Source: a virus (Duplodnaviria; Caudoviricetes). Taken from it: a DNA stretch of 54,147 bases. Both the position numbers and the translations under genes were made by a program. Position 1 is the first letter of the stretch. Every line of letters begins with the position of its first letter. Under the pieces are notes generated by a model, which saw only the letters and a list, made by a program, of their open reading frames with translations, was not told where the DNA came from and ran no database searches. This document shows, one piece after another, positions 2,559 through 43,823 of this stretch. The stretch lies in the IMG/VR virus record IMGVR_UViG_3300018080_000221, positions 1 to 54,147 of that record. One strand, given 5' to 3'.

Positions 2559-3034
2559 GCAAGTTGTTGGACCGCATCCCCTGGCTTCGTGCCAATGCTG
2601 CCAAGAGTGACGCTGAGGTTGAGTCGGAGGAGGGGGGGACTCAAGAACAGCCAGAGGCTCAGGAAGCAGCCACGGACACCGAGCAGGAGGAACAGGAGCA
2701 AGAGCAGACTGTGACCCTGGAAGAGATTGTCGAGCAGGTCAGGACGGCAGTCTTGGAGGAGGTGCAGCAGGCACTCGAACCTATCGTCAAGGCAGTCCAG
2801 GATATGGATCAGGCCATCCAGTCCCAGGACAGGCAGTTGGCGGAGGTTACCAAGAGTACCGCTGAGCAGGTCAAGAGCGCAATGTCGGGGGGTGATTGGC
2901 TCAAGAACCTTTATATCCGCAGTCGGGATGAGGAAGCCGCTGAGCAGCCTGACCCCGATCAGCCCCCAGAGGCAGCCGTACTGGCAGAGGGTGAAACCCC
3001 CAGTGGCCGTATCTTTGGGCAGAACAAGGCTTAG
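2555..3034 (+). CDS. Scaffolding protein
   Basis: Acidic coiled-coil between protease and capsid genes. Confidence 0.6.
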   Translation: MSKLLDRIPWLRANAAKSDAEVESEEGGTQEQPEAQEAATDTEQEEQEQEQTVTLEEIVEQVRTAVLEEVQQALEPIVKAVQDMDQAIQSQDRQLAEVTKSTAEQVKSAMSGGDWLKNLYIRSRDEEAAEQPDPDQPPEAAVLAEGETPSGRIFGQNKA

Positions 3035-3045
3035 GAGGTATAGCC

Positions 3046-4488
3046 ATGAATATCGTTGTTAGACCAGATGGCACCTTGGCGCTGGCTCAGCCCCAGGATA
3101 GTGCCATCCGAGCATCAGGCAATCCAGTGACGACTCCACCCATCTATGGGCATGGCGGATTGTTTGGTATGGCAGGGATCGACCCTGTAGTCGTCAATGC
3201 TATGGTCGGGGCGCACGGCATCGAGAGGGAGTTGTCCTTCTTTGGTTCTGATGTCCAGACGCCGTACTACGACACGCTGATGTATATCGGCTCTAGTGGC
3301 TATGCCCAGTCCTCGTTGTGTGGGGATTGTGGTAAGCCGTCCTTCAAGGAAGCGGTCCAGAGTGCCTGCTTTGGCCGTCTGTGCCAGATGACCAACGAGC
3401 ACGCAGTGGATATGCTGGGCATGAAGGGTACGTTCGCCCACAAGCGAGTCGCGCTCTTTAACCCCGTCACCGACGCTGCAGGTAACACGGTCATCGCCCA
3501 GGGCCAGGAGATTCAGGATAAGTTCCTCCTGGAAGTCGCTGGTATGGGCCTGGGCCTGCGTAACCGCCTGGCTACTGAGCTTTGGACGGGCAACCCTGCC
3601 AATAACCTGGGCGGGCATTGGGAGTTCCCTGGCTTGCAGTTGCTGGTGAATACGGGCAAGACCTGCGCTGCCAGTGGTATCGCTACTCCTGGCCTGGATA
3701 GTTACGTGGCCAGCTATGGCAGCAACGTCATCGGTGCTTTGGGCAGCCCCAGCATCGTCTCGACAGTGGCGGCAATGATTCGCTCCCTGCGCTTCCGTGC
3801 CCAGGCAGCTAACCTGAACCCCGACACCTTTGACGAGTTCATCGCCGTGCATCCTAGACTGAAGGAGTGTATCCTGGATGCTTGGGCCTGCGAGTATGGC
3901 TTGAAGTGTCAGAACACGACTGTATCAGCTGAGACCCGCAACGATAGCTTGGCGCTGGCCAATATCCGCGACGACATGATGAAGGGTAGCTACATCGTCG
4001 TCGATGGCCGTCGCATCCGAGTAGTCTCTGATAGCCAGATGCCAGTGACGGCAGTTCCATATGGCAACTATACAGCGTGGCGTGGTAGTATCTTCTACCT
4101 GGTGAAGAGTGTCGAGGGCGAACTGATCTTGTGGGGTGAGTACCAGGACTTCAACAAGACGTTCGGGGCCAGCTTGTCCTGGATCAAGAGCATGGTCGGT
4201 GGTGCGCCATTGACCATCACCGATGGCGGTCGGTTCATTGTGGCAGGCGACTTCCACGATGGCCTCTGCTTCGATGCCAAGCTCCTAACCAAGACACGCC
4301 TGATCGCTCGCATGCCGTGGTTGCTGGGTCGTATCGACAACGTCGTGTGCTTGCCGCTGGGCACGTACCCCGATGTTACCGGCAGTGGTGGCCTGTACGA
4401 TAACCAAGGCGGCACGCAGTACAAGCCGTACCTGGGTATCTATGGCGAGTGTGGCCAGCTGGACGAGGCCCAGGCGCCAATCCAGTAG
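3046..4488 (+). CDS. Major capsid protein
   Basis: 480 aa, strong AGGAGG RBS, biased codon use, LWTGN...FPGLQLL HK97-fold-like segment, followed by terminator. Confidence 0.75.
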   Translation: MNIVVRPDGTLALAQPQDSAIRASGNPVTTPPIYGHGGLFGMAGIDPVVVNAMVGAHGIERELSFFGSDVQTPYYDTLMYIGSSGYAQSSLCGDCGKPSFKEAVQSACFGRLCQMTNEHAVDMLGMKGTFAHKRVALFNPVTDAAGNTVIAQGQEIQDKFLLEVAGMGLGLRNRLATELWTGNPANNLGGHWEFPGLQLLVNTGKTCAASGIATPGLDSYVASYGSNVIGALGSPSIVSTVAAMIRSLRFRAQAANLNPDTFDEFIAVHPRLKECILDAWACEYGLKCQNTTVSAETRNDSLALANIRDDMMKGSYIVVDGRRIRVVSDSQMPVTAVPYGNYTAWRGSIFYLVKSVEGELILWGEYQDFNKTFGASLSWIKSMVGGAPLTITDGGRFIVAGDFHDGLCFDAKLLTKTRLIARMPWLLGRIDNVVCLPLGTYPDVTGSGGLYDNQGGTQYKPYLGIYGECGQLDEAQAPIQ

Positions 4489-4504
4489 TCTTTAGCTTTT
4501 AGTG

Positions 4505-4554
4505 GGCTACCAGCCGAGGCGCAATCCCCCCACCGCCAAGGCTGGTAGCCTTTT
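4505..4554 (+). terminator. Intrinsic terminator after capsid gene
   Basis: GGCTACCAGCC...GGCTGGTAGCC stem followed by TTTT. Confidence 0.7.
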
Positions 4555-4576
4555 ATCACGAGAGGGGGATGGGGGA

Positions 4577-5377
4577 ATGAGTACCGTCATCTACATACAT
4601 ATACCGAAGTGCGCAGGGTCTACAGCCTTGGGCATCTTGCATCCACTGTTTAAGGATGAAGAGATATTCCGGCAACGGGGCAGCGTCATCCAGGAGTATG
4701 GATGGTTGAGAGATAAGTCCGATGAGGAGAAGATGCGCCTCCGGTTGGTGTGTGGGCATATGTGCTACGGTTGGCACGAGGCTTTGGCTGAAGGCCAGCC
4801 GTACACGTATATAACCTTATTGAGAGACCCAGTCAATCGAGTGCTTAGCTTTTGCAGGTACGTGGAGAGGTTTAGCTGGCATACCATGAACGAGGTGATG
4901 CTAGATTTCGATAGCGATTGGGCCAAGTTCGTATCTTCAGGAAGGTGCAGGGCTGTAGACAATGGTATGGTCCGCATCCTATGCGGGGCAGACCAGATGT
5001 GGCAGGCCGACAAGAGAGGCGACATGAAGTTGCCTTATGGCTCCATTACTGAAGAGCATCTGGAGATGGCCAAAGAGAACCTAAAGAGATTTGCAGTAAT
5101 AGGTATTACTGAGCAATTCGACTTATTTATGCACCAGTTGAGGGCGCAGTTTGGTTGGGAGGTGCCACTCGCGTATAAGAGCGTCAACAGCCAAGGCAGA
5201 CTCAGAAAAGAGGACTATCCCTGGCATGTCTATGAGGCTATAAGAGAGGCCACTAGATTGGACCAAAAGCTCTACAGCTGGGCGATACAAGAAAGGATGG
5301 GGGGTACAATATATGAAGCGCCTTTATCTTGGTTCGGGCCGCAAGAGGCTGCCGGGATACATACATATAGATGCTGA
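4577..5377 (+). CDS. Sulfotransferase (Sulfotransfer_2 / Gal-3-O-sulfotransferase-like)
   Basis: 5'-PSB IHIPKCAGST and 3'-PB LRDPVNRVLS motifs; C-terminal LDQKLY. Confidence 0.85.
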   Translation: MSTVIYIHIPKCAGSTALGILHPLFKDEEIFRQRGSVIQEYGWLRDKSDEEKMRLRLVCGHMCYGWHEALAEGQPYTYITLLRDPVNRVLSFCRYVERFSWHTMNEVMLDFDSDWAKFVSSGRCRAVDNGMVRILCGADQMWQADKRGDMKLPYGSITEEHLEMAKENLKRFAVIGITEQFDLFMHQLRAQFGWEVPLAYKSVNSQGRLRKEDYPWHVYEAIREATRLDQKLYSWAIQERMGGTIYEAPLSWFGPQEAAGIHTYRC

Positions 5378-5849
5378 TCCAGACGTATGTCCCGACCTAG
5401 TGACCACAATAGACGACCTATCGGAGATTGAGAGCAGGTCGGTAGAGGCAGTCTATGCCTGCCATGTACTGGAGCACGTAGACAGATACGACGTTTTGCG
5501 TACTCTGCAAGAATGGCATAGGGTACTCATACCTGGAGGGGAGCTCAGGGTAGCAGTGCCAGACTTCGAGACCATGGTGGAGTTGTATGCCGGAGGAGTA
5601 CACCTGGAACGTATCTGGGGATTGTTTTATGGGGGCCAGAGGACGGAGTGGGACAGCCATAGGGTAGTGTTCGACTACGAAACCTTGGCCACCTACCTCC
5701 AAAAGGCTGGCTTCTATGGGATGGAGAAGTATAATGCCTATAAGTGGCTGGACAGGATTAACCTGGACGCTGGCTCTTATATCGACTTTAGCACAGCCAC
5801 GATCAACGGCATCTTGATATCCCTGAATGTAGTGGGGTTTGCCAAATGA
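5313..5849 (+). CDS. Class I SAM-dependent methyltransferase
   Basis: LYLGSG, IDAD, HVLEH, EWHRVLIPGG..VPD motifs. Confidence 0.85.
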   Translation: MKRLYLGSGRKRLPGYIHIDADPDVCPDLVTTIDDLSEIESRSVEAVYACHVLEHVDRYDVLRTLQEWHRVLIPGGELRVAVPDFETMVELYAGGVHLERIWGLFYGGQRTEWDSHRVVFDYETLATYLQKAGFYGMEKYNAYKWLDRINLDAGSYIDFSTATINGILISLNVVGFAK

Positions 5850-7600
5850 GCGATAACTACCAGGTAGAGTTAGTAAGTGGTACATACAACCGACTGCAGC
5901 TACTACAAAGGATGATAGCTTCTGCCAGGAAGTCTGTGGGCAGGCTGCGGTATAGGTTTATCCTGGTAGACGGCGGCTCGACTGACGGGACCATCGACTG
6001 GTGCAAGGAGCAAGACGACATCCTGCTTATCGAGCAGGGGGAGTTGCTAGGAGCTATCAAAGCCTACAATGCTGGATGCGAGGCGGCGACTGGTGAGTAC
6101 GTCGTCATCCTTAACGACGACATTACAGTTAATGGCAACTCTATCGTCCAAGGCTATAACTTCATGGAGAGTCATCCTGAGTGCGGTCAAGGAGCGTTTG
6201 GGCATGTCTACCAACGTAGGGGAGATAAGGCCAAGAGCGAAGTCCGTTGGCAAGGGGCCTATGGCTATCTCTATGGCCAGTGCAGCATTATCCGTAGGGA
6301 GCTTGGAGAGCTGGTCGGATGGTGGGGTACTGGTTACCGTACCTACGCCGGAGATACCCAGCTCAGCTTGAGGCTATGGGAATGCGGCTGGTCCGTACTG
6401 AGGGTAGTAGAGGCCAGCGTTACCGACTATGAGTTTGAGGATGAGCTCAGAGTCGTTAACGGTAAGGGGGCCAGTAACGTTCATCCAGACACCATTGCAT
6501 TCCAGCAGAGGTGGAAGGGCAGACTGCCTGCCGTGCGCGACTGGATACCTGCTGGCTATAACCGCATCTGGGGCAAGGCTGCTAGGGGAACTCTGAAGAC
6601 TGTACGGTTCAAGATTACCCCTCCTAACTGGCCTGAGAGGACTGCCTTGATTAACGTCTTCAAGAAGTACGGAGAGGCTACCCAGATCAACCAGTCAGAT
6701 TATAGCAGGAAGAACGGGCACGCAGCACTGCAGAAGTACGCCATAGATTGGGTACATAGGAACAAGCCAGACCTTATCTTGCTTCAGTCCCATGTCCCCA
6801 AGAACGCCGTGCTTCCAGAGACCGCACGCACAATGAAGCGCCTGTGCCCTGACGCGGTGATCGTGAATTGGAATGGGGACTGCCACTTCCCACTGAGCGA
6901 CTTTGACATCTCTATAGCCAGGTCGGTGGACTTGCACCTTCATATCTCGCCTACCCTGTATCCAGAGTACTTGGAGCGCGGGGTAGGTAACGTAGGATAC
7001 TGGCCCATTGGAGTGGAGACTGAGTTCTTTGAGGCTGAGAGGGCTACCAATTGGACTTCTCAAGGCCCTGGGCCAGACGTGATCTTCCTTGGCGCCCTCT
7101 ACGGTATTGGAGTCTTTCCAGAGGCCAAGACCAGACGAGAGGCAGTACATCGGTTATGGACGGATGACGAGGTGAGTCTGAAGGTCTATGGCCCAGGCTG
7201 GCACCAGATAGGGATAAACACGCATCCTACCTGGGATCGCTTCTTGGAGAATGCTGAGGCATATGCTAACTCCGCTATGGCCTTGAGCATCAGTCAGGCA
7301 TCCCATCTCTGGGGATATACTTCCGACAGGCTCTACAACATTTGCGCAAGTGGCTGTCCCGCCCTGGTCCAGAAGTTCGAGGGTATGGAGGAGCATGGAT
7401 TCGTGGATGGCGAGACCTGCATAGCCTGGGATGGCCTAAACAATATGATGGATCAGGTTAGGTACTACCTGAAGCCAGAGAACGTAGATCATCGAGAAAG
7501 AATAGCCATAGCAGGACGTCAGTTGATCAAGGATAAGCATACCTGGGACCATCGAGTGCCTGTATTGTTTGATATGATAGGGGGATTGCAATGCCGTTAG
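5846..7600 (+). CDS. Two-domain glycosyltransferase (GT2 + CgeB-like GT-B)
   Basis: TYNR, VDGGSTDGT, LNDD in N-half; SDRLYNICASG...HTWDHR in C-half. Confidence 0.85.
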   Translation: MSDNYQVELVSGTYNRLQLLQRMIASARKSVGRLRYRFILVDGGSTDGTIDWCKEQDDILLIEQGELLGAIKAYNAGCEAATGEYVVILNDDITVNGNSIVQGYNFMESHPECGQGAFGHVYQRRGDKAKSEVRWQGAYGYLYGQCSIIRRELGELVGWWGTGYRTYAGDTQLSLRLWECGWSVLRVVEASVTDYEFEDELRVVNGKGASNVHPDTIAFQQRWKGRLPAVRDWIPAGYNRIWGKAARGTLKTVRFKITPPNWPERTALINVFKKYGEATQINQSDYSRKNGHAALQKYAIDWVHRNKPDLILLQSHVPKNAVLPETARTMKRLCPDAVIVNWNGDCHFPLSDFDISIARSVDLHLHISPTLYPEYLERGVGNVGYWPIGVETEFFEAERATNWTSQGPGPDVIFLGALYGIGVFPEAKTRREAVHRLWTDDEVSLKVYGPGWHQIGINTHPTWDRFLENAEAYANSAMALSISQASHLWGYTSDRLYNICASGCPALVQKFEGMEEHGFVDGETCIAWDGLNNMMDQVRYYLKPENVDHRERIAIAGRQLIKDKHTWDHRVPVLFDMIGGLQCR

Positions 7601-8601
7601 TTAGTTTGATTATGCCTGCCAAGCTGGAGTCCGATGAGGACGTGGGCTGGATGAAGGAGCAACTAGAGACCATCCTGACTCAGGACCAAGAGAGCTGGGA
7701 GCTGCTTGTGGTTAACGACCACTCAGGCCAGTCCTTCAAGCCTCTGGCAGACTTCTTCAGGGACGACCGGATCAGTGGGATGAAGGCTAGTGGGTATGGC
7801 CCTGCAGCTGCTAGGAATCAAGCAGCAGAGGCCAGCACCAGTGGACTCCTGCTTCCGGTAGACCACGACGACAAGGTAGCACCAGGGGCACTCAAGCTCT
7901 TGCTTGGTGGGTGGGGCGAGTGCGGTAATGGAGTAATCTATGGGGATACGGTGATCTTTGGAGAGAACGGTAGCCGTGTATTCCAGTCTCCTCCATTCGA
8001 CCCAGACCTGATGCTGAAGCAGCTATTGATGCCAGTCTTTGGCCTGCATAGTAAGGCTGCATGGCAAGATGCTGGTGGATGGAAGTCCCAGCTTGAGCAT
8101 GGCCTAGAGGACTGGGAATACTACCTATCCTTGATGGAAAAGGGCCATTGCGGACACCACGTCAAGGGAGTCACCTATTACTACCGCAAGCATACCGGTA
8201 GCCGACTTTCAAACCTATTAGCCACGGATACAGGCTACCAGGTAGCCTATTCCAGAATGAGAGATATGCATAGCGACCTGTTCGCTGGGAGGATAAAAGT
8301 GCCTTGTGGACCTTGCTCAGGACAAATCGTAGGAAATAACAAGCCCATTCAGCCGCAGTCGTCTGTCATGACGGCAGTTCAGATGTCTCAAGTACCAGCT
8401 GACCAGTTGGTGCGGGTAGAGTACACTGGTAGACGTGCTGGCTCCTTTACCATTACTGGCCGTCCTAGTATGGCTCAATACGACGTGTCTGGGCCTGGGA
8501 GCGAGCTGGTTGGAGTAGACGGGCGACCAGGCGTGCTTGGCCAGGACATCAGGTTCATTACCTCCTTGGACGGTGGTAATACCTTTAGGGTAGTCCAATG
8601 A
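7591..8601 (+). CDS. GT2 glycosyltransferase with extra C-terminal domain
   Basis: VSLIMP, VNDHS, ARN, VDHDD, LEDWE, YYYRKH motifs. Confidence 0.85.
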   Translation: MPLVSLIMPAKLESDEDVGWMKEQLETILTQDQESWELLVVNDHSGQSFKPLADFFRDDRISGMKASGYGPAAARNQAAEASTSGLLLPVDHDDKVAPGALKLLLGGWGECGNGVIYGDTVIFGENGSRVFQSPPFDPDLMLKQLLMPVFGLHSKAAWQDAGGWKSQLEHGLEDWEYYLSLMEKGHCGHHVKGVTYYYRKHTGSRLSNLLATDTGYQVAYSRMRDMHSDLFAGRIKVPCGPCSGQIVGNNKPIQPQSSVMTAVQMSQVPADQLVRVEYTGRRAGSFTITGRPSMAQYDVSGPGSELVGVDGRPGVLGQDIRFITSLDGGNTFRVVQ

Positions 8602-9350
8602 TTATATGGCTGGCATCGTATCCAAGGTCGGGGAATACCTTGACTAGGATAGCAGTAAACGCTTTGTATGGAATTAAGACCCACTCCATGCATGCCGATG
8701 CCCCCTTGAATAGGCAGGACTACAGAGTAGCCTACGGATTTGTCATCAACGACAAGCTCAAGAATAAGTTGTATAGGCTGCGTGATAGGCCGCAGAGGTA
8801 CTTCATCAAGACTCATGCTGTCCTGGATAAGCCTAACTATATACAAGACGAGGACAAGGCCATCTATATAGTCAGGGATGGCCGGGATGCATTGGTATCT
8901 CGTGCCCACTTCTTTGCTGACAAGTATGCTGAGTATAAGGGCCATTTCATTGGTACCCTGAAGAGGTTGGTGATAGAGGATATCAAGTACAGACCTTGGA
9001 GCGAGTCGGTAATGACCTGGGCGGCTAGGCCAAATACTGCCTACGTCAGGTATGAGGAGATGGTGGTAGACCCATTTGGAGCCTTGGGAGCTGCCATGGC
9101 CAAGCTTGGGGTCAGTATCCCAAAAAAGAGTAGGGAAATGCCCAAGTTCACCACACTACACGACTCGGACAGTACCTTCTTCCGCAGGGGGGCAGCGAGG
9201 GCCTGGGTAGACGAGATGCCGGAGGAGCTGATCCAGGAGTTCTGGACTAGGAATTGGAGGGGGATGGTCTACTATGGATATGGAGATGGTGGTCAAGTTT
9301 CTGCTAGCGACATTAGCGATCTACAAGCTGAGTATGGTGCTTGTCCATGA
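8598..9350 (+). CDS. Sulfotransferase (Sulfotransfer_1 family)
   Basis: WLASYPRSGNT, IKTH, YIVRDGRDALVS, RYEEM, FFRRG motifs. Confidence 0.88.
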   Translation: MIIWLASYPRSGNTLTRIAVNALYGIKTHSMHADAPLNRQDYRVAYGFVINDKLKNKLYRLRDRPQRYFIKTHAVLDKPNYIQDEDKAIYIVRDGRDALVSRAHFFADKYAEYKGHFIGTLKRLVIEDIKYRPWSESVMTWAARPNTAYVRYEEMVVDPFGALGAAMAKLGVSIPKKSREMPKFTTLHDSDSTFFRRGAARAWVDEMPEELIQEFWTRNWRGMVYYGYGDGGQVSASDISDLQAEYGACP

Positions 9351-9606
9351 GAAATGGGGCGACCCGATCAGGGATAGGCTGGGCAAGGTCTGGATGACTA
9401 ACAAAGTCGGGATTCCAGTGACCTGGCTAGGCCGAACCCTCAGCTGCTTCTTCTGTACATCGTTCTTGGCGGCAGTCGTGGTCTTTACCGTACTCTTTTA
9501 CAAGACACCTGCACACGCGCTTTTAGGGGCGTGTGCTGCTTCTGGCGGAGTCGAACTACTATACATCTGGTCAGGCTCTCATAGGCTGTTCAGGGTCAAA
9601 GACTAG
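9274..9606 (+). CDS. DUF1360-like membrane protein
   Basis: LAIYKLS...E...PIR...LSCFFCTS pattern; hydrophobic helices; start may be 9286. Confidence 0.6.
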   Translation: MDMEMVVKFLLATLAIYKLSMVLVHEKWGDPIRDRLGKVWMTNKVGIPVTWLGRTLSCFFCTSFLAAVVVFTVLFYKTPAHALLGACAASGGVELLYIWSGSHRLFRVKD

Positions 9607-9614
9607 GAGTCCTT

Positions 9615-10793
9615 ATGGCTATAGCAAGTACGCCTACAATATTAAGCCTAGACAGGTATGCCGAGATTATGGCTATCCCTGGCTGGATGCTGGCTCAGGG
9701 AATCCACCCAGACCGACCTATGGGGGGAGACTGCCCTAACGTTTGGTACCAGTCTGGGTATGCTAGTACCCCCAACCGGATAGTCCAGAGGGAGGAGCTT
9801 GCCAAGGCTATCGAGACTGCCGAGGTAGCCATAGCTGAGTACCTGGGCTTTTGGCCTAGACCTGTATGGATAGCCGCCGAGGAGAAGGAGTGGCCTGGAA
9901 ACTCCAAGAGGCATAAGATCAGTAACCCTACCTTCTTTACTGAGTGGGGGCAGCTGATCGAGTTTGGGGTCGAGACCTGGGAGCTTCAGGAGTCTTTGTA
10001 TCCGGTAAACGTGGTCTATAGCGATAAGGATAGTGATGGTTATAACGAGTGGGCTACCATCACGTTTGCCACTACGCTGACCGACCCATGCGAGATTGAG
10101 GTAGTACCGTATGGTAAAGACCCCACAGATAGGGAGTGGCGCATCCGGCCCCTAGACATAGAGATCAGTGGCGGCACTTGCACTATCCAAGGATGGTCCT
10201 GGCTCTTTTTCAATCCGGATAGGTGGCTCACTCTGGATGAACTAGCAGTTGGTAACGCCAGCGACCTCCTATCGGTAGTAGACATCTACAGGCACTACAA
10301 CGACCCATCGACTCAAGGGCAGCTAGTCTGGAAGTCCGACCTGGAGGAATGTACTGGTACCACGGCTATCTGTACTGAGACTTGCCAGTCGGCCTGTGGA
10401 GTGGTGGACTCGGTCAGGGTAGGTAAGTTCCATCTAAGGGCAGCTAGCTACAGTGGTGGGACTTGGACCGGAACTGACCTCAGCTACGGGGACTACCCAG
10501 ATGCTGCCAGGGTATGGTATAGAGCGGGCTACAGGAGTCACCGAGGTTATAACTGCCATAGATGGCCTCCACGACTAGACGTAGCCATAGCAAGACTGGC
10601 CAACGTATATCTTCCAGAAGCTCCTTGCGGGTGCGGGTATACCAGGGAGCGGTGGGAGGAGGACAGGACAGAAGAGGATGTAGTTACAGCGGACATTGCA
10701 GTTGCTAAGGCAGTATTTGGTACTACTGCCAAGGGAGCTGTCTTTGCCCGTTCGGTGGCGGCTAGTTTGTCGCCTATAGGACAGGGGGGATAG
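9615..10793 (+). CDS. Head-tail connector/adaptor protein
   Basis: AIETAEVAIAEYLGF..P and WYRAGY...AIARLA adaptor-like motifs; position before tail tube. Confidence 0.6.
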   Translation: MAIASTPTILSLDRYAEIMAIPGWMLAQGIHPDRPMGGDCPNVWYQSGYASTPNRIVQREELAKAIETAEVAIAEYLGFWPRPVWIAAEEKEWPGNSKRHKISNPTFFTEWGQLIEFGVETWELQESLYPVNVVYSDKDSDGYNEWATITFATTLTDPCEIEVVPYGKDPTDREWRIRPLDIEISGGTCTIQGWSWLFFNPDRWLTLDELAVGNASDLLSVVDIYRHYNDPSTQGQLVWKSDLEECTGTTAICTETCQSACGVVDSVRVGKFHLRAASYSGGTWTGTDLSYGDYPDAARVWYRAGYRSHRGYNCHRWPPRLDVAIARLANVYLPEAPCGCGYTRERWEEDRTEEDVVTADIAVAKAVFGTTAKGAVFARSVAASLSPIGQGG

Positions 10794-21109: not shown

Positions 21110-21503
21110 CAGGAGCCTCCTCCAGGGCTGAATCGGTGAACTTGGAGATTTTTATCGACTTCGTGTTGTATTTCTGCTTCAAGCCCTGTACATACAGGTA
21201 GCGGCGTTCTCCCGATGCCTGGCAGTACCGATGCATCTCTGTAGCCAGGGCCTTGGCAACTGGCAGTAGGCTCAGGGCAATCTGGGCTATATCTGCTGCC
21301 TTGCCTGCCCACCACCGCCAGATACTGTCTTGAGGCTTGATAGTACCTCCAAAGTTTTGCTGGATATTGACTAGGGCCTGGCGGTCAGCGGTACATAGCT
21401 CCACCTTGGTAGTTCCCTGGCGCTTATTAGGCCCCATATCTATTATACGCCAGTACCCCTTCTCGACGATGAAGTCTATAGCTTCATCCTTAGTGCTTGT
21501 CAT
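21102..21503 (-). CDS. Degenerate LAGLIDADG-fold protein
   Basis: DFIVEKG...VELCTAD...IQQNFGGTI...WRW...LLP pattern. Confidence 0.5.
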   Translation of the reverse strand: MTSTKDEAIDFIVEKGYWRIIDMGPNKRQGTTKVELCTADRQALVNIQQNFGGTIKPQDSIWRWWAGKAADIAQIALSLLPVAKALATEMHRYCQASGERRYLYVQGLKQKYNTKSIKISKFTDSALEEAPDE

Positions 21504-24039
21504 CGTATGCCTCCAGGTGGCCCCAATCTGGGCCTAGGTCTATGTCCACCTTCCATGGGACTTGGGGAAACCACTTCTCCCCAGTAGCCTTCATGATAGA
21601 CTGGACTTTTCTACCTACCTCCTCGACCTTGTCGTTCCTGACCTCCAAGAGGACGCTGTCGTGGATAGTAGCTACCATCTTGGCGTAGTCGATACCCTCA
21701 GCCTTTAGCCAGTCGCATACCGAGATAAAGGTCATCAAGGTAACGTCTGAGGCAGCCCCTTGGACCGGCATGTTCCCTGCGGCCTTACGGGCATCGTCTA
21801 GGTTATCGTTGGTGATGAGAGGGTAGCGACGCCTACGCTTGGTTACAGTCTCCACGTAGCCTCGCGTCCTCAGGGTCTTGAGCTGGCCCTGCTTCCACTC
21901 CTCCAAGGTAGTCATGAGCTTCTTATACCTGCGGACGAACTGCCTGGCTAGGGTCATCGACATCCCAGTCTCCATAGCGAAGGAATGCTCAGTACCTCCA
22001 TACAGGTAGGCAAAGTTGAACTTCTTGCAGTTGTTGCGCTCGTCCTTGGTATACTCCTCTCCGTACATAGCTACTGCTACTTCAGAGTGGAGGTCGCGAC
22101 CCTCCTGGTATACTTGCAAGAGGAATGGCTCTCCAGATAGGGCAGCGGCTACTCTCATCTCTGCCTGGGAGATGTCTACCTCCATAATCGACCATCCTTC
22201 AGGAGCTTTGCAGTAGGCCGCCCTGATATACTGCCCCCAGGTATCCCCCAGAGCCGAGCCTGTACCTGGCCTGGGGATAGTCTGGATGGCAGGGTCACGG
22301 AAGGATACCCGGCCAGTCTCTGTACCATACAAGAGGCAGTCGGGATGTATCTTCCCCTCAGGGTCGATCATACTAGCATTGGTCCTCTTACGGTAGAATA
22401 GGTTGTCGATGTAGGAGCTTTTCAGCTTCAGTAAGGACTTCAGCTGGTCGAACCCCTCCAACCACTTATAGGCTACAGAATCCTGGCGACCCCAGCCGGC
22501 CAGCTTCTGCCTGATCAGTAGCCTCGCCTCTGCGCAGGTCGTCTTTGGCTTTGCGTTCCTAACCCTGACCGTAGGCAGTGCGAAGTGGTCATACATGATC
22601 TTCTGAACCTGCATCCAGGAGTTGGGGTTGAATTCGTACCCGCACATCTCTTCAAGTTCCTCTTGCAGCTTGACTGCCCCATCGCCCATCTCCTCAGACA
22701 AGCGGTGAAGCTCGTCTACGTCGCAGTACAGGCCATAGAGTTCCATATCCACCATATGAGGCAAAGCCGCCATCAGTGGGTAGCGGTACGGCATCTCGAA
22801 CATATCATCTGCCTCTAGCTGCTCCTTGAGGATGAACCAGAGTCTCAAGTTATAGCAAACGTCCAGGACGTTATACTCCATCAGCTGGTCGGCTGGGACA
22901 CTGGAGTACATATCGTTCTTGCTCTTGAGGTACTTCTTGACCAGTTCTCCCTCATAGTCTCCGATGTCGAGATAGTTAGTCAGCAACGGCTTGAGCCCGT
23001 GGTACATGGTCTCGTCGATCAGGTAGTGAGCTACCAAGCTGTCGTCATCTGCTCTAGCCTGGACCCCCAACTGGTGCCTGAGATACCTGATGTCGAACTT
23101 GGCGTTATGCCCGACAAAGGTGATACCATTATCTGGAGCAAAGAGGCGGTTGAGTGCCTCGGCTGTCTCTGGTAGGTAGACCATCTCTGCAGGAATGACC
23201 CAGGCTCGGTTGACGTCGTAGGCAAAGGCCATACATAGTATCCTATGCTCCCAATAGACCAGCTGATCAGTCTCAAGGTCGAAGCAGATGGTGAGTCCCT
23301 CCCTCCCCTGCTTGAGCATCGCATTTACCCAGTAGTTGAGGTCGTCTATATCCTCGACTACGTGGTAATGAGGATACGGCAGGTCTAGTGGTCCTCCATT
23401 GGCCAGCTTCTGAACGTCGTGGACTAGCTCAGAGAAGTGGCCTCCTGTACGTAGGATATAGGCTGGGTGCCAGGTACATATGACCCCGTCGTGCCACTGC
23501 CCTCTGAGCGACCCCTGCAGGATACCTGTAAGGGCCTTACCTGCTACTGCTCCAGCTGCTAGGATTGGGATGCCCTCGGCCTGGTAAGGTGCCAGCTCTG
23601 CAAGGAGTCTTGGACGGCAGCACTGGGCAGCCCTCCAAGGTATCTTGTTGGCTGGTGGATGGCAGAGGGCTGTATTGGTAAAGTATAGGTCGTCACGGGT
23701 GAGGTCAGTTGCTCCTTCTAGGATAGCCGTCAGCAACTTACCGGAGTCCCCAATGAAGGGGACTCCTTGCTTGGCTTCATTCCTGCCTGGGGCCTCCCCG
23801 CAAACAACGCCTCTGCACACGCCCTTATTCGGGGGTGTGCCAGAGCCTTGAACCATCGGACGGTGGAGCAGTGGGCAATGTATGCACTGGGGCTTAGGCA
23901 ATTCAGTATCCTTCACGCCCAGGGCTATATGCTTGCGCTCTGCTGCTATCAAGTCCTCATATGATACCTTCAGTAGGTCTTTATGATGAATCTTTGGCAG
24001 GTCCACTGGCTCTACTAACTGCTTGGCCCTCTTAGCCAT
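21490..24039 (-). CDS. polA: Family A DNA polymerase with N-terminal family-4 uracil-DNA-glycosylase-like domain and 3'-5' exonuclease
   Basis: CIHCPL, GEAPG, PFIG.SG, TWHPAY; FDLET, HNAKFD, YNVLD; DISQAEMR, KKFNFAYLYG, IHDS. Confidence 0.93.
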   Translation of the reverse strand: MAKRAKQLVEPVDLPKIHHKDLLKVSYEDLIAAERKHIALGVKDTELPKPQCIHCPLLHRPMVQGSGTPPNKGVCRGVVCGEAPGRNEAKQGVPFIGDSGKLLTAILEGATDLTRDDLYFTNTALCHPPANKIPWRAAQCCRPRLLAELAPYQAEGIPILAAGAVAGKALTGILQGSLRGQWHDGVICTWHPAYILRTGGHFSELVHDVQKLANGGPLDLPYPHYHVVEDIDDLNYWVNAMLKQGREGLTICFDLETDQLVYWEHRILCMAFAYDVNRAWVIPAEMVYLPETAEALNRLFAPDNGITFVGHNAKFDIRYLRHQLGVQARADDDSLVAHYLIDETMYHGLKPLLTNYLDIGDYEGELVKKYLKSKNDMYSSVPADQLMEYNVLDVCYNLRLWFILKEQLEADDMFEMPYRYPLMAALPHMVDMELYGLYCDVDELHRLSEEMGDGAVKLQEELEEMCGYEFNPNSWMQVQKIMYDHFALPTVRVRNAKPKTTCAEARLLIRQKLAGWGRQDSVAYKWLEGFDQLKSLLKLKSSYIDNLFYRKRTNASMIDPEGKIHPDCLLYGTETGRVSFRDPAIQTIPRPGTGSALGDTWGQYIRAAYCKAPEGWSIMEVDISQAEMRVAAALSGEPFLLQVYQEGRDLHSEVAVAMYGEEYTKDERNNCKKFNFAYLYGGTEHSFAMETGMSMTLARQFVRRYKKLMTTLEEWKQGQLKTLRTRGYVETVTKRRRRYPLITNDNLDDARKAAGNMPVQGAASDVTLMTFISVCDWLKAEGIDYAKMVATIHDSVLLEVRNDKVEEVGRKVQSIMKATGEKWFPQVPWKVDIDLGPDWGHLEAYDDKH

Positions 24040-24835
24040 GACCCATCCTCTCTCCCTCATTAGAGGCCATCTTGGTAGCTTTATGGTAAATGGCGAGATT
24101 GATCTCTGCCAGGGTCAAGGTCTCTTTGAGTAGGTAGCCCTCTGGACGCCAGGCATCCTCAGTCATATTGCACTTGCCTATCATCTCGGTATAGACCTGA
24201 CCCTGCAAGGCGGCCGCGTAGGGGCAGGTGGTATCCCAACTGCGGATATGTGGGAAGTAGCTGATCGCTTGGATAGGTTGGGACATAACCGACCATTGCC
24301 CTAGTAAGTGCAGCCTGGATGGATGCCCCATATAAGGAGTCAATCTGATGCAGTGCGTCCTGACCCATGAGAGGGCAGCGATGCGGCCTCCAGGGAACTT
24401 GTCTAGCACTTTAGGTATCCCAATGGTGAGCTGAGGGATACGCTCCCATAGGTCAGTACCCATCATCTGCCTCAGGCACTCCACCCACTCCTGTACAGAG
24501 CCTCCTTGCGGTACGACCATAACGCTATTGGCATAGGCAGACAGTTCCAGGGCATGGGCATGGAACAGCTTGAGGGTCTTGTCCTTATCCATAAAGGCGT
24601 CGGGGCAGACTACCTCAAATGGCTCGATAGCCTTGGCAACCTTGTAGAGGGTCTTGACCCTTGGCTCTCCAGTCTCTATGACCCCATTATCTAGGATGAC
24701 TCCGCTATGATCCCTGAACTGCTCCCATTCGTCCTCTGGCAGGTCGTTGAATAGGTGGGCTTGGAGCATAACGTATACCCCAGTGGCTAGATGCTTCACC
24801 ATCTTCAGTGGTAGTACGGGCGCAAATTCAGTCAC
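24032..24835 (-). CDS. Divergent TGT/DpdA-fold (7-deazaguanine transglycosylase-like) protein
   Basis: VILDNG, CPD, VVPQG, LHLLG, RSWDT match the order of TGT active-site motifs; AAGGAGG before GTG 24835. Confidence 0.7.
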   Translation of the reverse strand: MTEFAPVLPLKMVKHLATGVYVMLQAHLFNDLPEDEWEQFRDHSGVILDNGVIETGEPRVKTLYKVAKAIEPFEVVCPDAFMDKDKTLKLFHAHALELSAYANSVMVVPQGGSVQEWVECLRQMMGTDLWERIPQLTIGIPKVLDKFPGGRIAALSWVRTHCIRLTPYMGHPSRLHLLGQWSVMSQPIQAISYFPHIRSWDTTCPYAAALQGQVYTEMIGKCNMTEDAWRPEGYLLKETLTLAEINLAIYHKATKMASNEGERMGHG

Positions 24836-25262: not shown

Positions 25263-25689
25263 CTTGCAGTAACCTCCTGTATATACTAACTGACGGTAGT
25301 TGAAATGGTCGGTATACCTTATGAGTCCTCCTCTCTACCCTTACCCAGCTGCCTATAGTATCCCACCTCTTGGCAGTTGGGTAGTTTACTTCTGCCAAGA
25401 TATTGTTCTGGATCATCCACTGGTCGTCTGGCAAGCCTCCGGTGGTGAGGGTATGGTCTGCGCAATCGGCTACCAGGAAGTATTCCCACCTGCTATAGCC
25501 ATACGGGCGCAGTGCCCATATCTGGCCTATGTCTCGGCAATCGGCAGAGGCTATATAGCCATCGACCATAGGAGTTATTAGTGGGAGGTGGCCTGTCCTC
25601 ATACGGTTCAAGACCACCTCCTCCATCAGCCCTTCTCGGTAGTGACTAGCCCAGCCGTAGATGATCACCAGGGCAGCTAGGGCATTCAT
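25246..25689 (-). CDS. RlpA/DPBB-like protein with hydrophobic N-terminus
   Basis: GWASHY...GYIA...C..IG...LVADC...AEV pattern; ATGA coupled to queC. Confidence 0.45.
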   Translation of the reverse strand: MNALAALVIIYGWASHYREGLMEEVVLNRMRTGHLPLITPMVDGYIASADCRDIGQIWALRPYGYSRWEYFLVADCADHTLTTGGLPDDQWMIQNNILAEVNYPTAKRWDTIGSWVRVERRTHKVYRPFQLPSVSIYRRLLQDETVY

Positions 25690-26417
25690 TCTGCTTCGAT
25701 GTAGCCAGCATCTATGCAACGACTGACCACGCGCCTCATGCCATCGAGGTCATAGGCAGGGTCGTGCATGTCGTTGGCCCAGAATGCTGCGGCACGTAGG
25801 AGGCAACTATCGCACGTACCGCAAGCCTGCTCGTCGTTCCGGTAGCAACTACGCGTATGCTCCCAAGGAACACCCAGGTCTCTTCCAAGCTCGACAATCT
25901 CTGCCTTGGTCAAGGTTATGAGTGGATGAGCAATGGTAACCTCGAACCCTCCCAGTGCCAGGACTGCAGTATCGGCAAACGCCTCCAAGAAGTCCTGCCG
26001 GCAATCTGGGTATTCCACGTCTTGCTCAACCCACCCCCCGACCAGCATATGTGCGTCGTACTTGTAGAGTAGGGGGAGAGTCCTGGCCAGCTGGAAGAGG
26101 TTGCGTCCTGGTACGAAAGATGATGGGTTACCATACTTGTCAGTAACGCCAGGTCTCAAGTCCGTAACGTCGCTGGTGATAGCCTCTAGTCCATAGCCGT
26201 CAATCTTGATGGCCTGGAATGGGATGACGTGGCCTAGCTCGGATGCCAGAGAGCCCATCACCATTAACGCTGCGTTGGCCTCGTAGTCGGCTCCAAGCTG
26301 CCCATAGTCGAAGTGGGCAATCGCTACTACCTCTGTATTCGGACGTGCTGCTGCCCAGTATAGGGCCGTGGAGGAGTCCATTCCTCCACTAAGTAGAACC
26401 ACTGCTCTGTCCTTCAT
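25686..26417 (-). CDS. queC: 7-cyano-7-deazaguanine synthase
   Basis: LSGGMDS, FVPGRN, YPDCR, SCY..CGTCDSC..R. Confidence 0.95.
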   Translation of the reverse strand: MKDRAVVLLSGGMDSSTALYWAAARPNTEVVAIAHFDYGQLGADYEANAALMVMGSLASELGHVIPFQAIKIDGYGLEAITSDVTDLRPGVTDKYGNPSSFVPGRNLFQLARTLPLLYKYDAHMLVGGWVEQDVEYPDCRQDFLEAFADTAVLALGGFEVTIAHPLITLTKAEIVELGRDLGVPWEHTRSCYRNDEQACGTCDSCLLRAAAFWANDMHDPAYDLDGMRRVVSRCIDAGYIEAE

Positions 26418-27024
26418 CTTCAGTTACCTCCATTCCTAGAGTATTATAGAGCCTACCTTCAAACTGCATGCGCCAACCTGGCTCTAGTAGGTCTACGGCG
26501 TGCAGTACCGACGGCGTGTTAGCTTTGATCTTGTTCTTGGTTATATACTTCTGGGCCTGCCCTCCTAGACGGCTGGCTATATAGATAACCTTCTGATCTG
26601 GCTTGAGTCCTTGCCCATATAAGAGGACCAGCCCATGCATCAAGATAAACTGTATCTTGTCCTTGGCTACCTTCCTATCCAGGTACAGGTTATAGAGCCT
26701 GCCGCTATGGATAAAGTTATGGCAAGTATAGCACAGGGCAACGGTCTCTCTATAGCGGAGCACCAACTTATCCCACAAGTAGTCGTAGCACTCGTGGGCC
26801 TCTAACCATTGGTGATACTTGGCGTTAGAGGAGGAAACCCCGCAGGCAAAGCAATGGTAGTTGTTAACCTCGTAAACCTGCTTACGATGCCTATCCCACC
26901 ATTCCTTACCCATCAACGTCCTTGGGTTAACCCCTGACAGGTACTTGGGTATGTTAGGATGCTGCAGAATATCTGGCCTGGTAAACTTGAGGCCAGTAGC
27001 CGATAGGTCCAGGCTAATCTTCAC
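26389..27024 (-). CDS. HNH endonuclease
   Basis: W...R..VY...CFACG...LEAHE...LCYTCHNFIH. Confidence 0.75.
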   Translation of the reverse strand: MKISLDLSATGLKFTRPDILQHPNIPKYLSGVNPRTLMGKEWWDRHRKQVYEVNNYHCFACGVSSSNAKYHQWLEAHECYDYLWDKLVLRYRETVALCYTCHNFIHSGRLYNLYLDRKVAKDKIQFILMHGLVLLYGQGLKPDQKVIYIASRLGGQAQKYITKNKIKANTPSVLHAVDLLEPGWRMQFEGRLYNTLGMEVTEDEGQSSGST

Positions 27025-27340
27025 GATTGACTGACCTGTCTACATTGAACCCTTCTGGATACCTACCTGCTAGCTTATCCAAGTTCAAAGTGGCTACCTC
27101 TTCTAGCGTCAGCCCTATGGCATCGGCAGTGACTGCCACGTACCATAGGACGTCCCCCAGCTCCTTAGCTACTGCCGCTGCCCTGATTGGGTGGCCGTGC
27201 CAGACGTACTTCTTGACTAGGTCCAGTACCTCACCAGCTTCCCCTCCCAATCCTATAGAAGCATAGACCAGCTTCTGGACTCCACTATCGAAGCCCATAC
27301 AGGTCTTGAGTGCCCCCTTCTGGTATTCATTTAGTTCCAT
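27014..27340 (-). CDS. mazG: MazG-like NTP pyrophosphohydrolase
   Basis: YQ..A, GLGGEAGEV, ELGDVLWY, N..KL..RYP. Confidence 0.92.
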   Translation of the reverse strand: MELNEYQKGALKTCMGFDSGVQKLVYASIGLGGEAGEVLDLVKKYVWHGHPIRAAAVAKELGDVLWYVAVTADAIGLTLEEVATLNLDKLAGRYPEGFNVDRSVNRED

Positions 27341-32745: not shown

Positions 32746-32919
32746 CTAGAACTTCAGATTGGCGCTGCGTTCAGCATCCTTCCGTTGGATGGTCTGGACT
32801 TTGACCTTCAGCATAGCTTTGGATACCGACTCTACAGTCCTGGTCCTGCCTCCTGGTAAGGTGATCTTGGCGCGGTGGACGCCGCGTTTCTCATCATACC
32901 AGTATCTTACACTGCCCAT
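32746..32919 (-). CDS. 57-aa basic protein (MGSVRYWYDEKRGVHRAKITL...)
   Basis: AGGAGG RBS; TGATG coupling to folE stop; below cutoff. Confidence 0.55.
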   Translation of the reverse strand: MGSVRYWYDEKRGVHRAKITLPGGRTRTVESVSKAMLKVKVQTIQRKDAERSANLKF

Positions 32920-33518
32920 CATTTACCTCCTTCCTTAGCCAGGAACATAAATTCCTGGTATAGATAGGGATTACCAAGGAAGTAACCCCGCTTAACTGAC
33001 GTACCTAGGCTGCCCGTATTCTCGATACCACGGCACTGCATACAGGTATGCCGGCCAATGGCATAGGCTGCCACTGAGGACTGGCCCGTTATCTCTGCAA
33101 TCTCGTCTGCCACCTGATTGAGGAACCTCTCCTGTATCTGCAGACGGTGGGCATACTTATAGCAAACTCTGGCTACCTTGGATGCCCCCAGGTATTTATC
33201 CTTTACCTGATAGCCTACCACGACATCCATCGAGAACGGCAGTAGGTGATGCTCGCACATGGACCAGACGTCATTGACTCTGAGGACTACTAACTGACCC
33301 TGCCCCTTGGCCTCGAAGGTAGTACCTATCTTGCCAGGATCGTACTCAATAAAGGACTTCCAGAATCTAGCTACTCTGTCTGGGGTATCAACCAATCCCT
33401 CACGAGTGGGGTTCTCTCCTATGGCCCTGAGCAGGCGAGTCACCGAGATTCGGATCAAGTCCTCCTGCACACCCCCTGACTCGGCGTGTGCGGCTGCTGT
33501 CGTTTCTTCCTTCATCAT
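32919..33518 (-). CDS. folE: GTP cyclohydrolase I
   Basis: REGL.DTP.RVA, SMCEHHLLPF, SK..R, RLQIQE, HTCM..RG. Confidence 0.95.
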   Translation of the reverse strand: MMKEETTAAAHAESGGVQEDLIRISVTRLLRAIGENPTREGLVDTPDRVARFWKSFIEYDPGKIGTTFEAKGQGQLVVLRVNDVWSMCEHHLLPFSMDVVVGYQVKDKYLGASKVARVCYKYAHRLQIQERFLNQVADEIAEITGQSSVAAYAIGRHTCMQCRGIENTGSLGTSVKRGYFLGNPYLYQEFMFLAKEGGK

Positions 33519-34153
33519 TTCACCCCTATATACTTATGGACTTGGACCGACAGCCGGCAACCGAGTTGAAGGCATGCCTTGAAGGCCAGCTTGGTGGAGT
33601 GCTCCTCCTGGGAGATAGGCTGTAGGCAAACGCGCTGAGGGTCTATGTCGTGTAGGTTCATGAACGCCTTCAGCCTGGCTATAGAGGGCATCCCACCCAC
33701 CAGCCACTTGATCTCGTCTGCCCCCTCAACGACGTTCTTCAGGTAGCTACCCTCAGGGAGCATATGCTTGGGGCTTACCACGATATGGTCGATTAGGTGT
33801 GCCCCTGGGATAGGTAGGCTACCATTGGTCTCCAGATGGATGCATGGAATGGGATGGCTCAACTGGATGAGCGCCTCTAGCAGGGCCTCCAGGGGTTGTA
33901 GGCACGGCTCGCCTCCGGTCAGTACCAGGAGGTCGTTGGCATGGGCAGTCTGCTGGATAGCCTTAACCAGTCGATTCAGGGTATAGGTCGTACCCCCTTC
34001 AAGGCCGATGGACCCCTTGGTATCGCAGAAGCCGCAGTCGAGATTGCACCCCTGGAACCTGACGAAGGTAGCAGGCCAGCCAGAGAAGCGTCCTTCTCCC
34101 TGGATAGACCGGAAGATAGAGTGTACTAGGTAGGTTGGCTTAGACTTCGACAC
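33515..34153 (-). CDS. queE: 7-carboxy-7-deazaguanine synthase (radical SAM)
   Basis: SIQGEG, CNLDCGFCDT, TGGEP, ETNG, SPK, LSVQVHK. Confidence 0.95.
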   Translation of the reverse strand: MSKSKPTYLVHSIFRSIQGEGRFSGWPATFVRFQGCNLDCGFCDTKGSIGLEGGTTYTLNRLVKAIQQTAHANDLLVLTGGEPCLQPLEALLEALIQLSHPIPCIHLETNGSLPIPGAHLIDHIVVSPKHMLPEGSYLKNVVEGADEIKWLVGGMPSIARLKAFMNLHDIDPQRVCLQPISQEEHSTKLAFKACLQLGCRLSVQVHKYIGVK

Positions 34154-43112: not shown

Positions 43113-43218
43113 AGCAGTTCCTTTCTAGTAGTCTGGTGCCTAAGCTGGATTAGGCGTTTATGGGTAGTCAGCTAGGGAGCTAGCCTGTTAAGGTCTCGCT
43201 CCGGTTTTTCTCCCTTCT

Positions 43219-43248
43219 AGTTTACTATAACAGGCTGGCTTTAGTAAA
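43219..43248 (-). promoter_or_regulatory. sigma70-like early promoter
   Basis: TTTACT-N18-TAAACT. Confidence 0.7.
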
Positions 43249-43329
43249 GTCCCCCCAGTAGGGCCAAACGCCCTGGCAAGTAGGAAAGGGGGAGAGGACG
43301 GCTGTTATGGTAGACGGCTGATAAGGTAG

Positions 43330-43790: not shown

Positions 43791-43823
43791 AAGAACCCCC
43801 TACCCTATAGATAGGGCAGGGGG
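43785..43823 (-). terminator. Intrinsic terminator
   Basis: CCCCCTGCCCTAT/ATAGGGTAGGGGG stem then TTCTTTTATTT on minus strand. Confidence 0.75.

Follow-up and report, generated by a model that had tools for sequence, protein, structure and literature searches.

The experimental documentation of virion glycosylation in tailed phages that we found, in passages of PMC11600133 and PMC12619734, concerns mycobacteriophages only. Enzymes encoded by mycobacteriophage cassettes reportedly modify subunits of both the capsid and the tail tube (PMC11600133; PMC12619734 citing Freeman 2023); according to a section of PMC4351075, cluster O members hold an O-methyltransferase and three glycosyltransferase (GT) genes inside the structural operon, and the Corndog-type glycosylation enzymes are not part of the particle. 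Cassettes of methyltransferase and GT genes in phage structural operons are, therefore, already known. Here we describe a cassette of six genes located at positions 4577-9606 of a 54,147-bp stretch of DNA, hereafter the window, which is the whole IMG/VR virus record IMGVR_UViG_3300018080_000221 (Duplodnaviria; Caudoviricetes), classed there as having direct terminal repeats. Like the mycobacteriophage cassettes (gp35-38 of the cluster O phage Corndog; Che8-type) it combines a methyltransferase with several GTs in a structural operon (PMC4351075), but it follows the capsid gene, whereas those lie between portal and protease, and it contains in addition two sulfotransferases, a CgeB-like domain and a DUF1360 membrane protein. 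Since tblastn with two of its products, the two-domain GT fusion and the sulfotransferase ST1, disclosed no sequence similarity to mycobacteriophages in 50,697 phage records, this precedent is used as an analogy only: ST1 gave zero matches and the GT fusion gave three weak partial ones, a Synechococcus phage and a faecal phage among them. Zero matches were also obtained by blastn of positions 3046-10793 against the 50,697 deposited phage records. Comparison with metagenomic relatives, which is the new result of this work, suggests that a large family of environmental phages is characterised by glycan cassettes next to the capsid gene.

Outside tailed phages, virus-encoded GTs with a methyltransferase domain serve for host-independent glycosylation of the capsid in chlorovirus PBCV-1, and giant viruses have fibril glycans. 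The window phage shares with them a virus-encoded glycan machinery and putative sugar methylation, and its relatives carry sugar-nucleotide enzymes; PBCV-1 and giant viruses differ in infecting eukaryotes and in using other enzymes, and we know of no sulfation in their glycans. A GT2-fold enzyme carried by a phage is also found in modules for Gtr-type O-antigen conversion and for transfer of N-acetylglucosamine (GlcNAc) to teichoic acid. These modules consist, however, of 1-3 genes of temperate phages with membrane-embedded components, instead of the multi-enzyme system of ~5 kb that is placed in the head module here. Viral sulfotransferases are listed as auxiliary metabolic genes in a part of the metagenome paper PMC8290583. 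A phrase search of a part of the literature, with supplements outside its scope, found no phage-encoded sulfotransferase acting on virions and no sulfated phage glycan.

The cassette and its place behind the capsid gene

The cassette is filled by six co-directional open reading frames (ORFs) of the plus strand (Table 1), neighbours overlapping by 65, 4, 10, 4 and 77 nt. They encode, in this order, a Sulfotransfer_2-like enzyme (ST2), a methyltransferase, the GT fusion, a second GT (GT2b), the Sulfotransfer_1 enzyme (ST1) and the DUF1360-like protein. The first ORF begins 89 nt past the stop codon of the capsid gene, and a purine-rich stretch precedes the start codon of each. Gene content, order and position described in an earlier note on this DNA were reproduced by the ORF list and a Pfam scan, the scores of which are given as bits versus curated cutoffs; in NCBIfam no cassette protein exceeded any family cutoff. 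Hydrophobicity analysis (Kyte-Doolittle window) disclosed no transmembrane segment in the five enzymes and two hydrophobic segments in the DUF1360-like protein. The Pfam scans covered 50 ORFs of the window, with some small ORFs left out. None of the 50 matched an initiating polyprenyl-phosphate transferase, a flippase, a polymerase or an exporter. Genes for lipid-carrier-dependent surface polysaccharides were, thus, not encountered in the ORFs scanned, and host enzymes could supply such functions.

Scanning IMG/VR and metagenome contigs with the capsid protein, we obtained 15 distinct loci (numbered with the prefix L; duplicates L007 = L002 and L013 = L005 were removed), ten of which hold at least 500 bp past the capsid gene. 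An ST2 orthologue (31-64% identity) directly follows the capsid gene in nine of the ten, usually with the methyltransferase and the GT fusion next. These nine loci represent fewer than nine lineages, as L004, L005 and L011 are nearly one phage, and L002, L008 and L016 stand close together. The tenth locus, L003, has a Nucleotid_trans-type (nucleotide-sugar transferase) protein and an unassigned ORF, followed by the GT fusion. In L016 the gene order of the window is preserved from the capsid gene through the gene of a 752-aa protein. The cassette of L004 includes an NAD-dependent sugar epimerase/dehydratase and lacks the Sulfotransfer_1 gene, orthologues of which (61-64% identity) were found in L006 and L016. 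Additional capsid and ST1 homologues may be located together on contigs of 55,077, 40,436 and 33,769 bp, lengths that recurred in the searches with the two proteins.

A scan with an 82-sequence capsid profile added 22 loci with capsid identities of 26-43%, 15 of them having at least 6.9 kb downstream, and GT genes follow the capsid gene in 11 of these 15. Profiles of the cassette proteins revealed in L104 the order ST2, methyltransferase, GT fusion, GT2b, DUF1360, adaptor, and an iterated search placed an epimerase/dehydratase-like ORF between its GT fusion and GT2b. Even at 26% capsid identity (L124/L125, near-identical to each other) the GT fusion, GT2b and DUF1360 genes come straight after the capsid gene, and GT and DUF1360 genes are also present downstream of it in L113 and L119. 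According to Pfam, 93 post-capsid ORFs from 12 distant loci comprise 14 GT2, 6 Glyco_trans_1_2 and 2 GT1 proteins, 6 NAD-dependent epimerases/dehydratases (Polysacc_synt_2/RmlD-like), one dTDP-sugar isomerase, 3 methyltransferases and 4 DUF1360 proteins; such counts are thus suggestive of a self-contained phage glycan toolkit. The iterated GT2 profile called 25 of the 93 ORFs versus 14 by Pfam, and since calls with E of 1e-7 to 1e-11 may be drift, only those below 1e-20 were counted (L106, L107, L110, L111, L113, L115, L119, L120). No sulfotransferase family appeared in the 93 ORFs among the Pfam matches listed (25 of 36 families), and iterated local profiles found neither ST1 nor ST2 there; the sulfotransferases, judging by these searches, seem to be confined to a clade with roughly at least 43% capsid identity to the window. 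A DUF1360 homologue comes last in the cassettes of L004, L016, L104, L106, L110, L113, L115, L119 and L124/L125. The picture that emerges is that of an old capsid-adjacent glycan cassette with variable content, usually closed by a DUF1360 gene. The adjacency of capsid gene and cassette seen in the window is, thus, kept in relatives, which strengthens the link of the cassette to the head module. As a separate observation, the post-capsid regions of L106-L123 contain, interspersed with the glycan genes, four GIY-YIG/NUMOD3 homing-endonuclease ORFs and one ORF for an N6_N4 DNA methylase.

The identity of the capsid gene itself was established by structural modelling. Its product has no Pfam or PHROG match, sequence-profile searches of PDB gave matches at chance level only, and the family includes at least 134 metagenomic proteins. 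The AlphaFold2 model based on an 82-sequence alignment had a predicted local distance difference test score (pLDDT) of 85 and a predicted template modelling score (pTM) of 0.81; it was used instead of the model from a five-sequence alignment, which was unusable (pLDDT 35.5). Foldseek comparison of the model with PDB gave 262 matches at E<=0.001, headed by the SU10 capsid (7z46_J, E 2e-9), and the matches with probability 1.00 included SU10, HK97, T5 and other capsids as well as encapsulins. Atlas leads agree with these matches (SU10_MCP clusters). The product of 3046-4488 is, on the evidence of the model, an HK97-fold major capsid protein, and the label given to it in the earlier note is borne out. 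Cysteines C92, C95, C113 and C408 are invariant in the capsid family and several more are nearly so; the CxxC...C segment (residues about 90-115) gave chance-level zinc-ribbon matches, and the cysteines may form a metal-binding or disulfide insertion in the HK97 fold.

Enzymes of the cassette

The Pfam score of ST2, taken on a longer ORF with the start codon GTG at 4502, stays below the cutoff. This weak call is rescued by the score of the L004 orthologue against Sulfotransfer_2 (PF03567; 30.9 bits with the cutoff of 22, L002 reaching 22.1), by the conservation of motifs and by a profile match. ST2 opens with IHIPKCAGST, which resembles the loop binding 3'-phosphoadenosine 5'-phosphosulfate (PAPS), followed by LLRDPVNRVLS, and the motifs IHIP[KR]xAG[ST] and LR[DN]PxxRxxS are kept in all eight aligned orthologues, down to 33% identity. 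The profile of these eight orthologues matches heparan sulfate 2-O-sulfotransferase over both motif regions (E 9e-12) and 6-O-sulfotransferase (E 1e-8), so that by its profile the ST2 family resembles carbohydrate O-sulfotransferases. In IMG/VR the ST2 profile found only three contigs, already in the set.

In ST1 the segments YPRSGNT, KTH and VRDGRDALVS correspond to YPKSGTT, KTH and ARNAKDVAVS of SULT1A1; together with an FFRRG..W segment, YPRSGNT, KTH and RDGRDALVS align to the PAPS-binding and catalytic segments of this enzyme. Residues K71, H73, R93, D94, R96, D97 and S101 do not vary among 34 homologues, and in the P-loop-like segment R replaces K, as it does in the whole bacterial family of ST1. 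Homologues number 606 at E<=1e-3; the cellular ones, with at most 40% identity, belong to Planctomycetota, Acidobacteriota, Actinomycetota, Chloroflexota, Proteobacteria and others. The best of them (40% identity), from a metagenome-assembled genome of Phycisphaerae (L022), lies between ABC-2 permease/ATPase genes and three GT genes (GT2, GT2, GT4), and therefore a glycan acceptor is indicated for the ST1 family. The phage cassette has no ABC-2 export genes. Of 79 cellular ST1 loci searched by tblastn, 10 have a GT2-like gene no farther than 7 kb away, and the neighbours of a homologue in a Bradyrhizobium genome are unrelated to glycans. The nearest matches of the ST1 profile are cytosolic phenol/steroid SULTs (E 2e-26), tyrosine-ester sulfotransferase and the glycopeptide-antibiotic sulfotransferases Teg12, Teg14 and StaL. 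Scans of IMG/VR with the single proteins ST1 and GT fusion gave no relatives. The phage enzymes share PAPS-binding segments with heparan sulfate 2-O/6-O-sulfotransferases, SULT1 and Teg12/StaL, and ST1 also the catalytic His, but differ from them in being much smaller, stand-alone and phage-encoded. ST2 and ST1 belong to different Pfam families, but to call them two unrelated sulfotransferases is overstated, since both display the same kind of PAPS-binding motifs.

The methyltransferase matches phrog_6636 (1.3e-8), has an N-terminal LGSG glycine motif and is represented in relatives by orthologues with 37-64% identity. Its Pfam match spans only profile positions 48-93; an N-terminal truncation was considered and rejected, as the partial coverage reflects a short N-terminus which still has the glycine motif. 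The GT fusion joins an N-terminal GT2 (GT-A) domain to a C-terminal CgeB-like Glyco_trans_1_2 domain (PF13524, residues 431-571; 74.4 bits in the L004 orthologue), and VDGGS.DGT and LNDDI are invariant in four orthologues. In L016 it is split in two ORFs (1922-2890 and 2900-3652), which may be either real or an assembly error. In GT2b the motifs VNDHS and D(H/A)DD (D-x-DD) are invariant in orthologues, and its profile matches in PDB chondroitin synthase, GalT1, SpsA and the beta-1,3-GlcNAc transferase 6h1j, which we take to be the prophage-encoded teichoic-acid enzyme TarP. In NCBIfam the GT2 domains come nearest to EpsD/WcaA/TuaG-like models, with scores that fall far short of the cutoffs. 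The C-terminal domain of GT2b (8296-8598, 101 residues) has 23 matches at E<=1e-3 among 1.84 billion representative proteins: GT2b-like proteins, small stand-alone proteins and giant Ig-like-repeat proteins. Because of these giants the domain is probably Ig-like. Cofactor and catalytic motifs of the cassette enzymes, thus, look intact and are kept in relatives down to 33-47% identity, in line with the functional enzymes supposed earlier. The DUF1360 assignment is borderline in the window and firmer in L004 (26.5 bits); the literature that we found to mention DUF1360 states no function for it.

Hairpin, downstream genes and genome setting

Between the capsid gene and the cassette there is a hairpin followed by a T-run (Table 1). 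A consensus terminator scanner left it unflagged, and the z-score of the 91-nt fold around it (-1.16) was not significant versus shuffles. At the same time, a strong hairpin stands right after the capsid stop codon in all ten loci folded (window and nine relatives), formed by differing sequences, which makes it plausible that a leaky terminator or an RNA-stabilising element is conserved here. Probably it is a leaky terminator or attenuator. The name "capsid terminator" previously given to it agrees with the perfect stem, the T-run and the conserved position, but not with the scanner result and the modest z-score.

The ORF downstream of the cassette has no Pfam or PHROG match. Its assignment as a candidate head-tail adaptor comes from Atlas leads, in all of which the TM score by query is below 0.5, so that the word "neck" applied earlier to this flank finds some agreement in leads of adaptor type and itself remains a lead. 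The candidate adaptor follows the cassette in L004, L016 and L104. Directly after it lies a BNR/Asp-box beta-propeller gene, kept in L004 and L016; its product, which weakly matches a glycosylhydrolase family, could be a glycan-binding or glycan-cleaving virion protein.

Table 1. Features of the window, with the matches or evidence on which each assignment relies
Feature	Position	Strand	Evidence
Major capsid protein, HK97 fold, SU10-like, 480 aa	3046-4488	+	AlphaFold2 and Foldseek
Post-capsid hairpin and T-run	4505-4556	+	11-bp perfect stem 4505-4515/4540-4550, then TTTTAT
ST2, Sulfotransfer_2-like PAPS-dependent sulfotransferase, 266 aa	4577-5377	+	Pfam 20.5 bits vs cutoff 22
Class I S-adenosylmethionine-dependent methyltransferase, 178 aa	5313-5849	+	Methyltransf_11 (PF08241) 32.6 bits vs 21.2
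GT fusion, 584 aa	5846-7600	+	Glycos_transf_2 70.0 bits (cutoff 23.3); Glyco_trans_1_2 66.7 bits (cutoff 25)
GT2b, 336 aa, probably Ig-like C-terminal domain	7591-8601	+	Glycos_transf_2 (PF00535) 47.1 bits vs 23.3
ST1, Sulfotransfer_1 (PF00685) PAPS-dependent sulfotransferase, 250 aa	8598-9350	+	72.3 bits vs 22
DUF1360-like (PF07098) membrane protein, 110 aa	9274-9606	+	21.6 bits vs 21; phrog_781
Candidate head-tail adaptor, 392 aa	9615-10793	+	Atlas leads: adaptor, head completion, Phage_connect_1 (gp6-like connector) clusters
BNR/Asp-box beta-propeller protein, 488 aa	10802-12268	+	PSII_BNR, Sortilin-Vps10
Replication module		-	Family A DNA polymerase, SNF2 helicase, PD-(D/E)XK nuclease, AAA_24 ATPase
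Family A DNA polymerase	21490-24060	-	Fused N-terminal UDG-superfamily and 3'-5' exonuclease domains
DUF6610-like protein, 405 aa	24032-25249	-	Weak match; no PDB sequence match
QueC	25686-26417	-	
MazG pyrophosphohydrolase	27014-27340	-	
GTP cyclohydrolase I (FolE)	32919-33518	-	
QueE-like radical-SAM protein	33515-34153	-	
QueD-like PTPS	34140-34679	-	
Large terminase	49079-50563		phrog_9, E 1e-32

Both ends of the genome share an exact 123-bp repeat, which lies between the ORF 53174-54145, open at its 3' end, and the ORF 2-925, open at its 5' end. No tRNA genes are present in the window, and no integrase family was matched by Pfam among the ORFs scanned. An AT-rich island (43200-43800, GC 0.24-0.43) with short tandem repeats and divergent gene blocks on either side could be an origin or a regulatory region.

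The QueC, FolE, QueE-like and QueD-like genes are encoded in the replication module on the minus strand. FolE, QueD, QueE and QueC constitute the usual toolkit for 7-deazaguanine modification of DNA, and their genes, by homology, point to such a pathway independent of the cassette. A MazG gene is located near them, and the DUF6610-like protein might be a DpdA-like transglycosylase. A thymidylate-synthase-like hydroxymethylase, which would make an acceptor base for glycosylation, was not matched by Pfam in the 50 ORFs, and we know of no sulfated DNA base. The paucity of CA/TG dinucleotides, to which the cassette would be linked by the DNA modification proposed in the earlier note, is real but local, and no connection of it with the cassette emerged: there are 17 of them in 47,001-48,000 (two in 47,601-48,000) versus about 117-154 per kb in most other windows of this size, and the genome-wide odds ratios are 1.06 for CA and 1.05 for TG. 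This region has GC of 0.41-0.49 and covers the minus-strand ORF 47074-47547 together with a stretch upstream of the terminase region. Across the whole genome it is CpG that is depleted (odds ratio 0.61), and AG/CT and TA occur in excess.

Acceptors of the putative glycan

In the reading that we favour, and in which our confidence is moderate, the cassette would be a cytoplasmic system for glycosylation of virion proteins that was extended in one clade by methyl and sulfate tailoring. It would be expressed late, in the cytoplasm and as a part of the head module of this phage family, co-transcribed by read-through of the post-capsid hairpin. The GT2, CgeB-like and GT2 plus Ig-like domains would build a short glycan, the small methyltransferase would O-methylate it, and ST2 together with ST1 would add sulfate esters from host PAPS. 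The most likely acceptors would be virion proteins, the major capsid protein first, and the particle would thereby acquire a coat of anionic, methyl-capped glycan, with possible roles in masking, in colloidal or charge properties and in adsorption to surfaces or their avoidance. Co-transcription, glycan product, virion acceptor and biological role are what we infer. The virion is preferred because cassette and capsid gene have stayed together in very divergent relatives, because relatives carry their own sugar-nucleotide enzymes, because carrier-lipid, flippase, polymerase and export functions were not seen in the ORFs scanned, and because cluster O mycobacteriophages hold comparable genes, an O-methyltransferase and three GTs, inside their structural operon. 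A sulfated and methylated glycan is a reasonable product, since ST2 is similar to carbohydrate sulfotransferases and the closest cellular homologue of ST1 belongs to a polysaccharide cluster. Of the sulfated, methylated virion glycan supposed in the earlier note, the product is, thus, reasonable and its connection with the head module has been strengthened by synteny, but the virion acceptor we still only infer.

Several points weigh against this reading. All support for the acceptor is positional and comparative, and in four of the 15 distant loci (L116, L118, L121, L123) Pfam and cassette-profile searches found no GT after the capsid gene. GT2s of this kind usually work at the membrane on lipid-linked or polymeric glycans, being soluble peripheral proteins, and because of this the absence of transmembrane segments does not discriminate between acceptors. 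A purely cytoplasmic model leaves the DUF1360-like membrane protein, which constantly accompanies the cassette, without a role. The genes around the cellular relative of ST1 form a cluster for polysaccharide export and not for protein glycosylation, and ST1 of the window has R at position G201, where at least 90% of homologues have G (FFRxGxxGxW segment). Finally, neither the GT fusion nor ST1 found a mycobacteriophage match by tblastn in the 50,697 phage records. Keeping these points in mind, a bolder statement can be made only tentatively: a widespread, uncultivated family of ~50-55 kb tailed phages may coat the capsid with a virus-made glycan, the coat of one clade being sulfated, O-methylated and polyanionic owing to two sulfotransferases.

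The same enzymes may instead extend, methylate and sulfate a surface glycan of the host during infection, with O-antigen, units of capsule or extracellular polysaccharide, wall polymers or S-layer glycans as candidates and the DUF1360 protein helping at the membrane; receptors would then be masked against superinfection, or progeny protected from adsorbing to debris. The membrane protein which always accompanies the cassette is in line with this possibility, as are the family models nearest to the GT2 domains, namely the polysaccharide GTs EpsD, WcaA and TuaG, and the PDB profile matches, which include chondroitin synthase, SpsA and 6h1j. The cellular homologues of ST1 point in the same direction, the best one having three GTs and the ABC-2 permease and ATPase genes as neighbours, and 10 of the 79 loci having a GT2-like gene within 7 kb. 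We regard host-envelope tailoring as a strong rival, though a less probable one than the virion reading. The cassette stays fixed beside the capsid gene at capsid identities from 79% to 26%, whereas conversion genes of temperate phages are usually found near attachment or immunity regions, and no integrase family was met among the ORFs scanned. In addition, whole sugar-nucleotide pathways with 2-4 GTs in relatives look like de novo synthesis and not like a one-step change of a side chain, and flippase, polymerase and exporter were not seen.

Still less probable, in our opinion, is a product belonging neither to the virion nor to the envelope, such as a soluble sulfated and methylated glycoside or glycolipid, or a direct sulfation of protein side chains, for instance tyrosine, independent of the GTs. 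The proximity of the ST1 profile to cytosolic SULTs, tyrosine-ester sulfotransferase, Teg12, Teg14 and StaL conforms to these versions, and so does the inclusion of virome sulfotransferases among auxiliary metabolic genes in the part of PMC8290583 mentioned above. For direct sulfation one can also refer to the C-terminal region of the capsid protein, where 82 sequences show an invariant Y466 and a nearly invariant Y451. An even bolder variant of the capsid-coat statement may be derived from them, according to which the SULT-like enzyme would directly sulfate these conserved tyrosines. However, sulfotransferases, methyltransferase and GTs are coupled in an operon and jointly kept behind the capsid gene, which argues for one shared pathway; ST2 resembles sugar O-sulfotransferases, and Pfam disclosed no lipid- or polyketide-type genes in the cassette.

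Hypermodification of DNA late or at packaging, the alternative which the earlier note linked to the CA/TG desert, is hardly credible: although phage GTs glycosylating DNA exist (a passage of PMC12619734 citing Pyle 2024) and expression of the cassette would coincide with packaging, this version has little support, since the genome has a separate module for 7-deazaguanine on the other strand and the desert is confined to ~1 kb at 47-48 kb, while no hydroxymethylase was matched and the ST2 profile resembles carbohydrate sulfotransferases.

According to these data, the capsid-adjacent glycan cassette is conserved in a large family of environmental phages that has no relation to mycobacteriophages. 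Its content suggests diversification similar to that of O-antigens, with sugar-nucleotide enzymes in some members and methyl and sulfate tailoring in others. If the particle is indeed the acceptor, glycosylation of particles would be a general strategy of phages, and sulfation would join their post-translational chemistry. The "sulfotransferase auxiliary metabolic genes" of viromes would then need rereading as genes of structural modules, and the window phage would be the first tailed phage with a sulfated virion glycan and the first in which sulfotransferases have a functional use.

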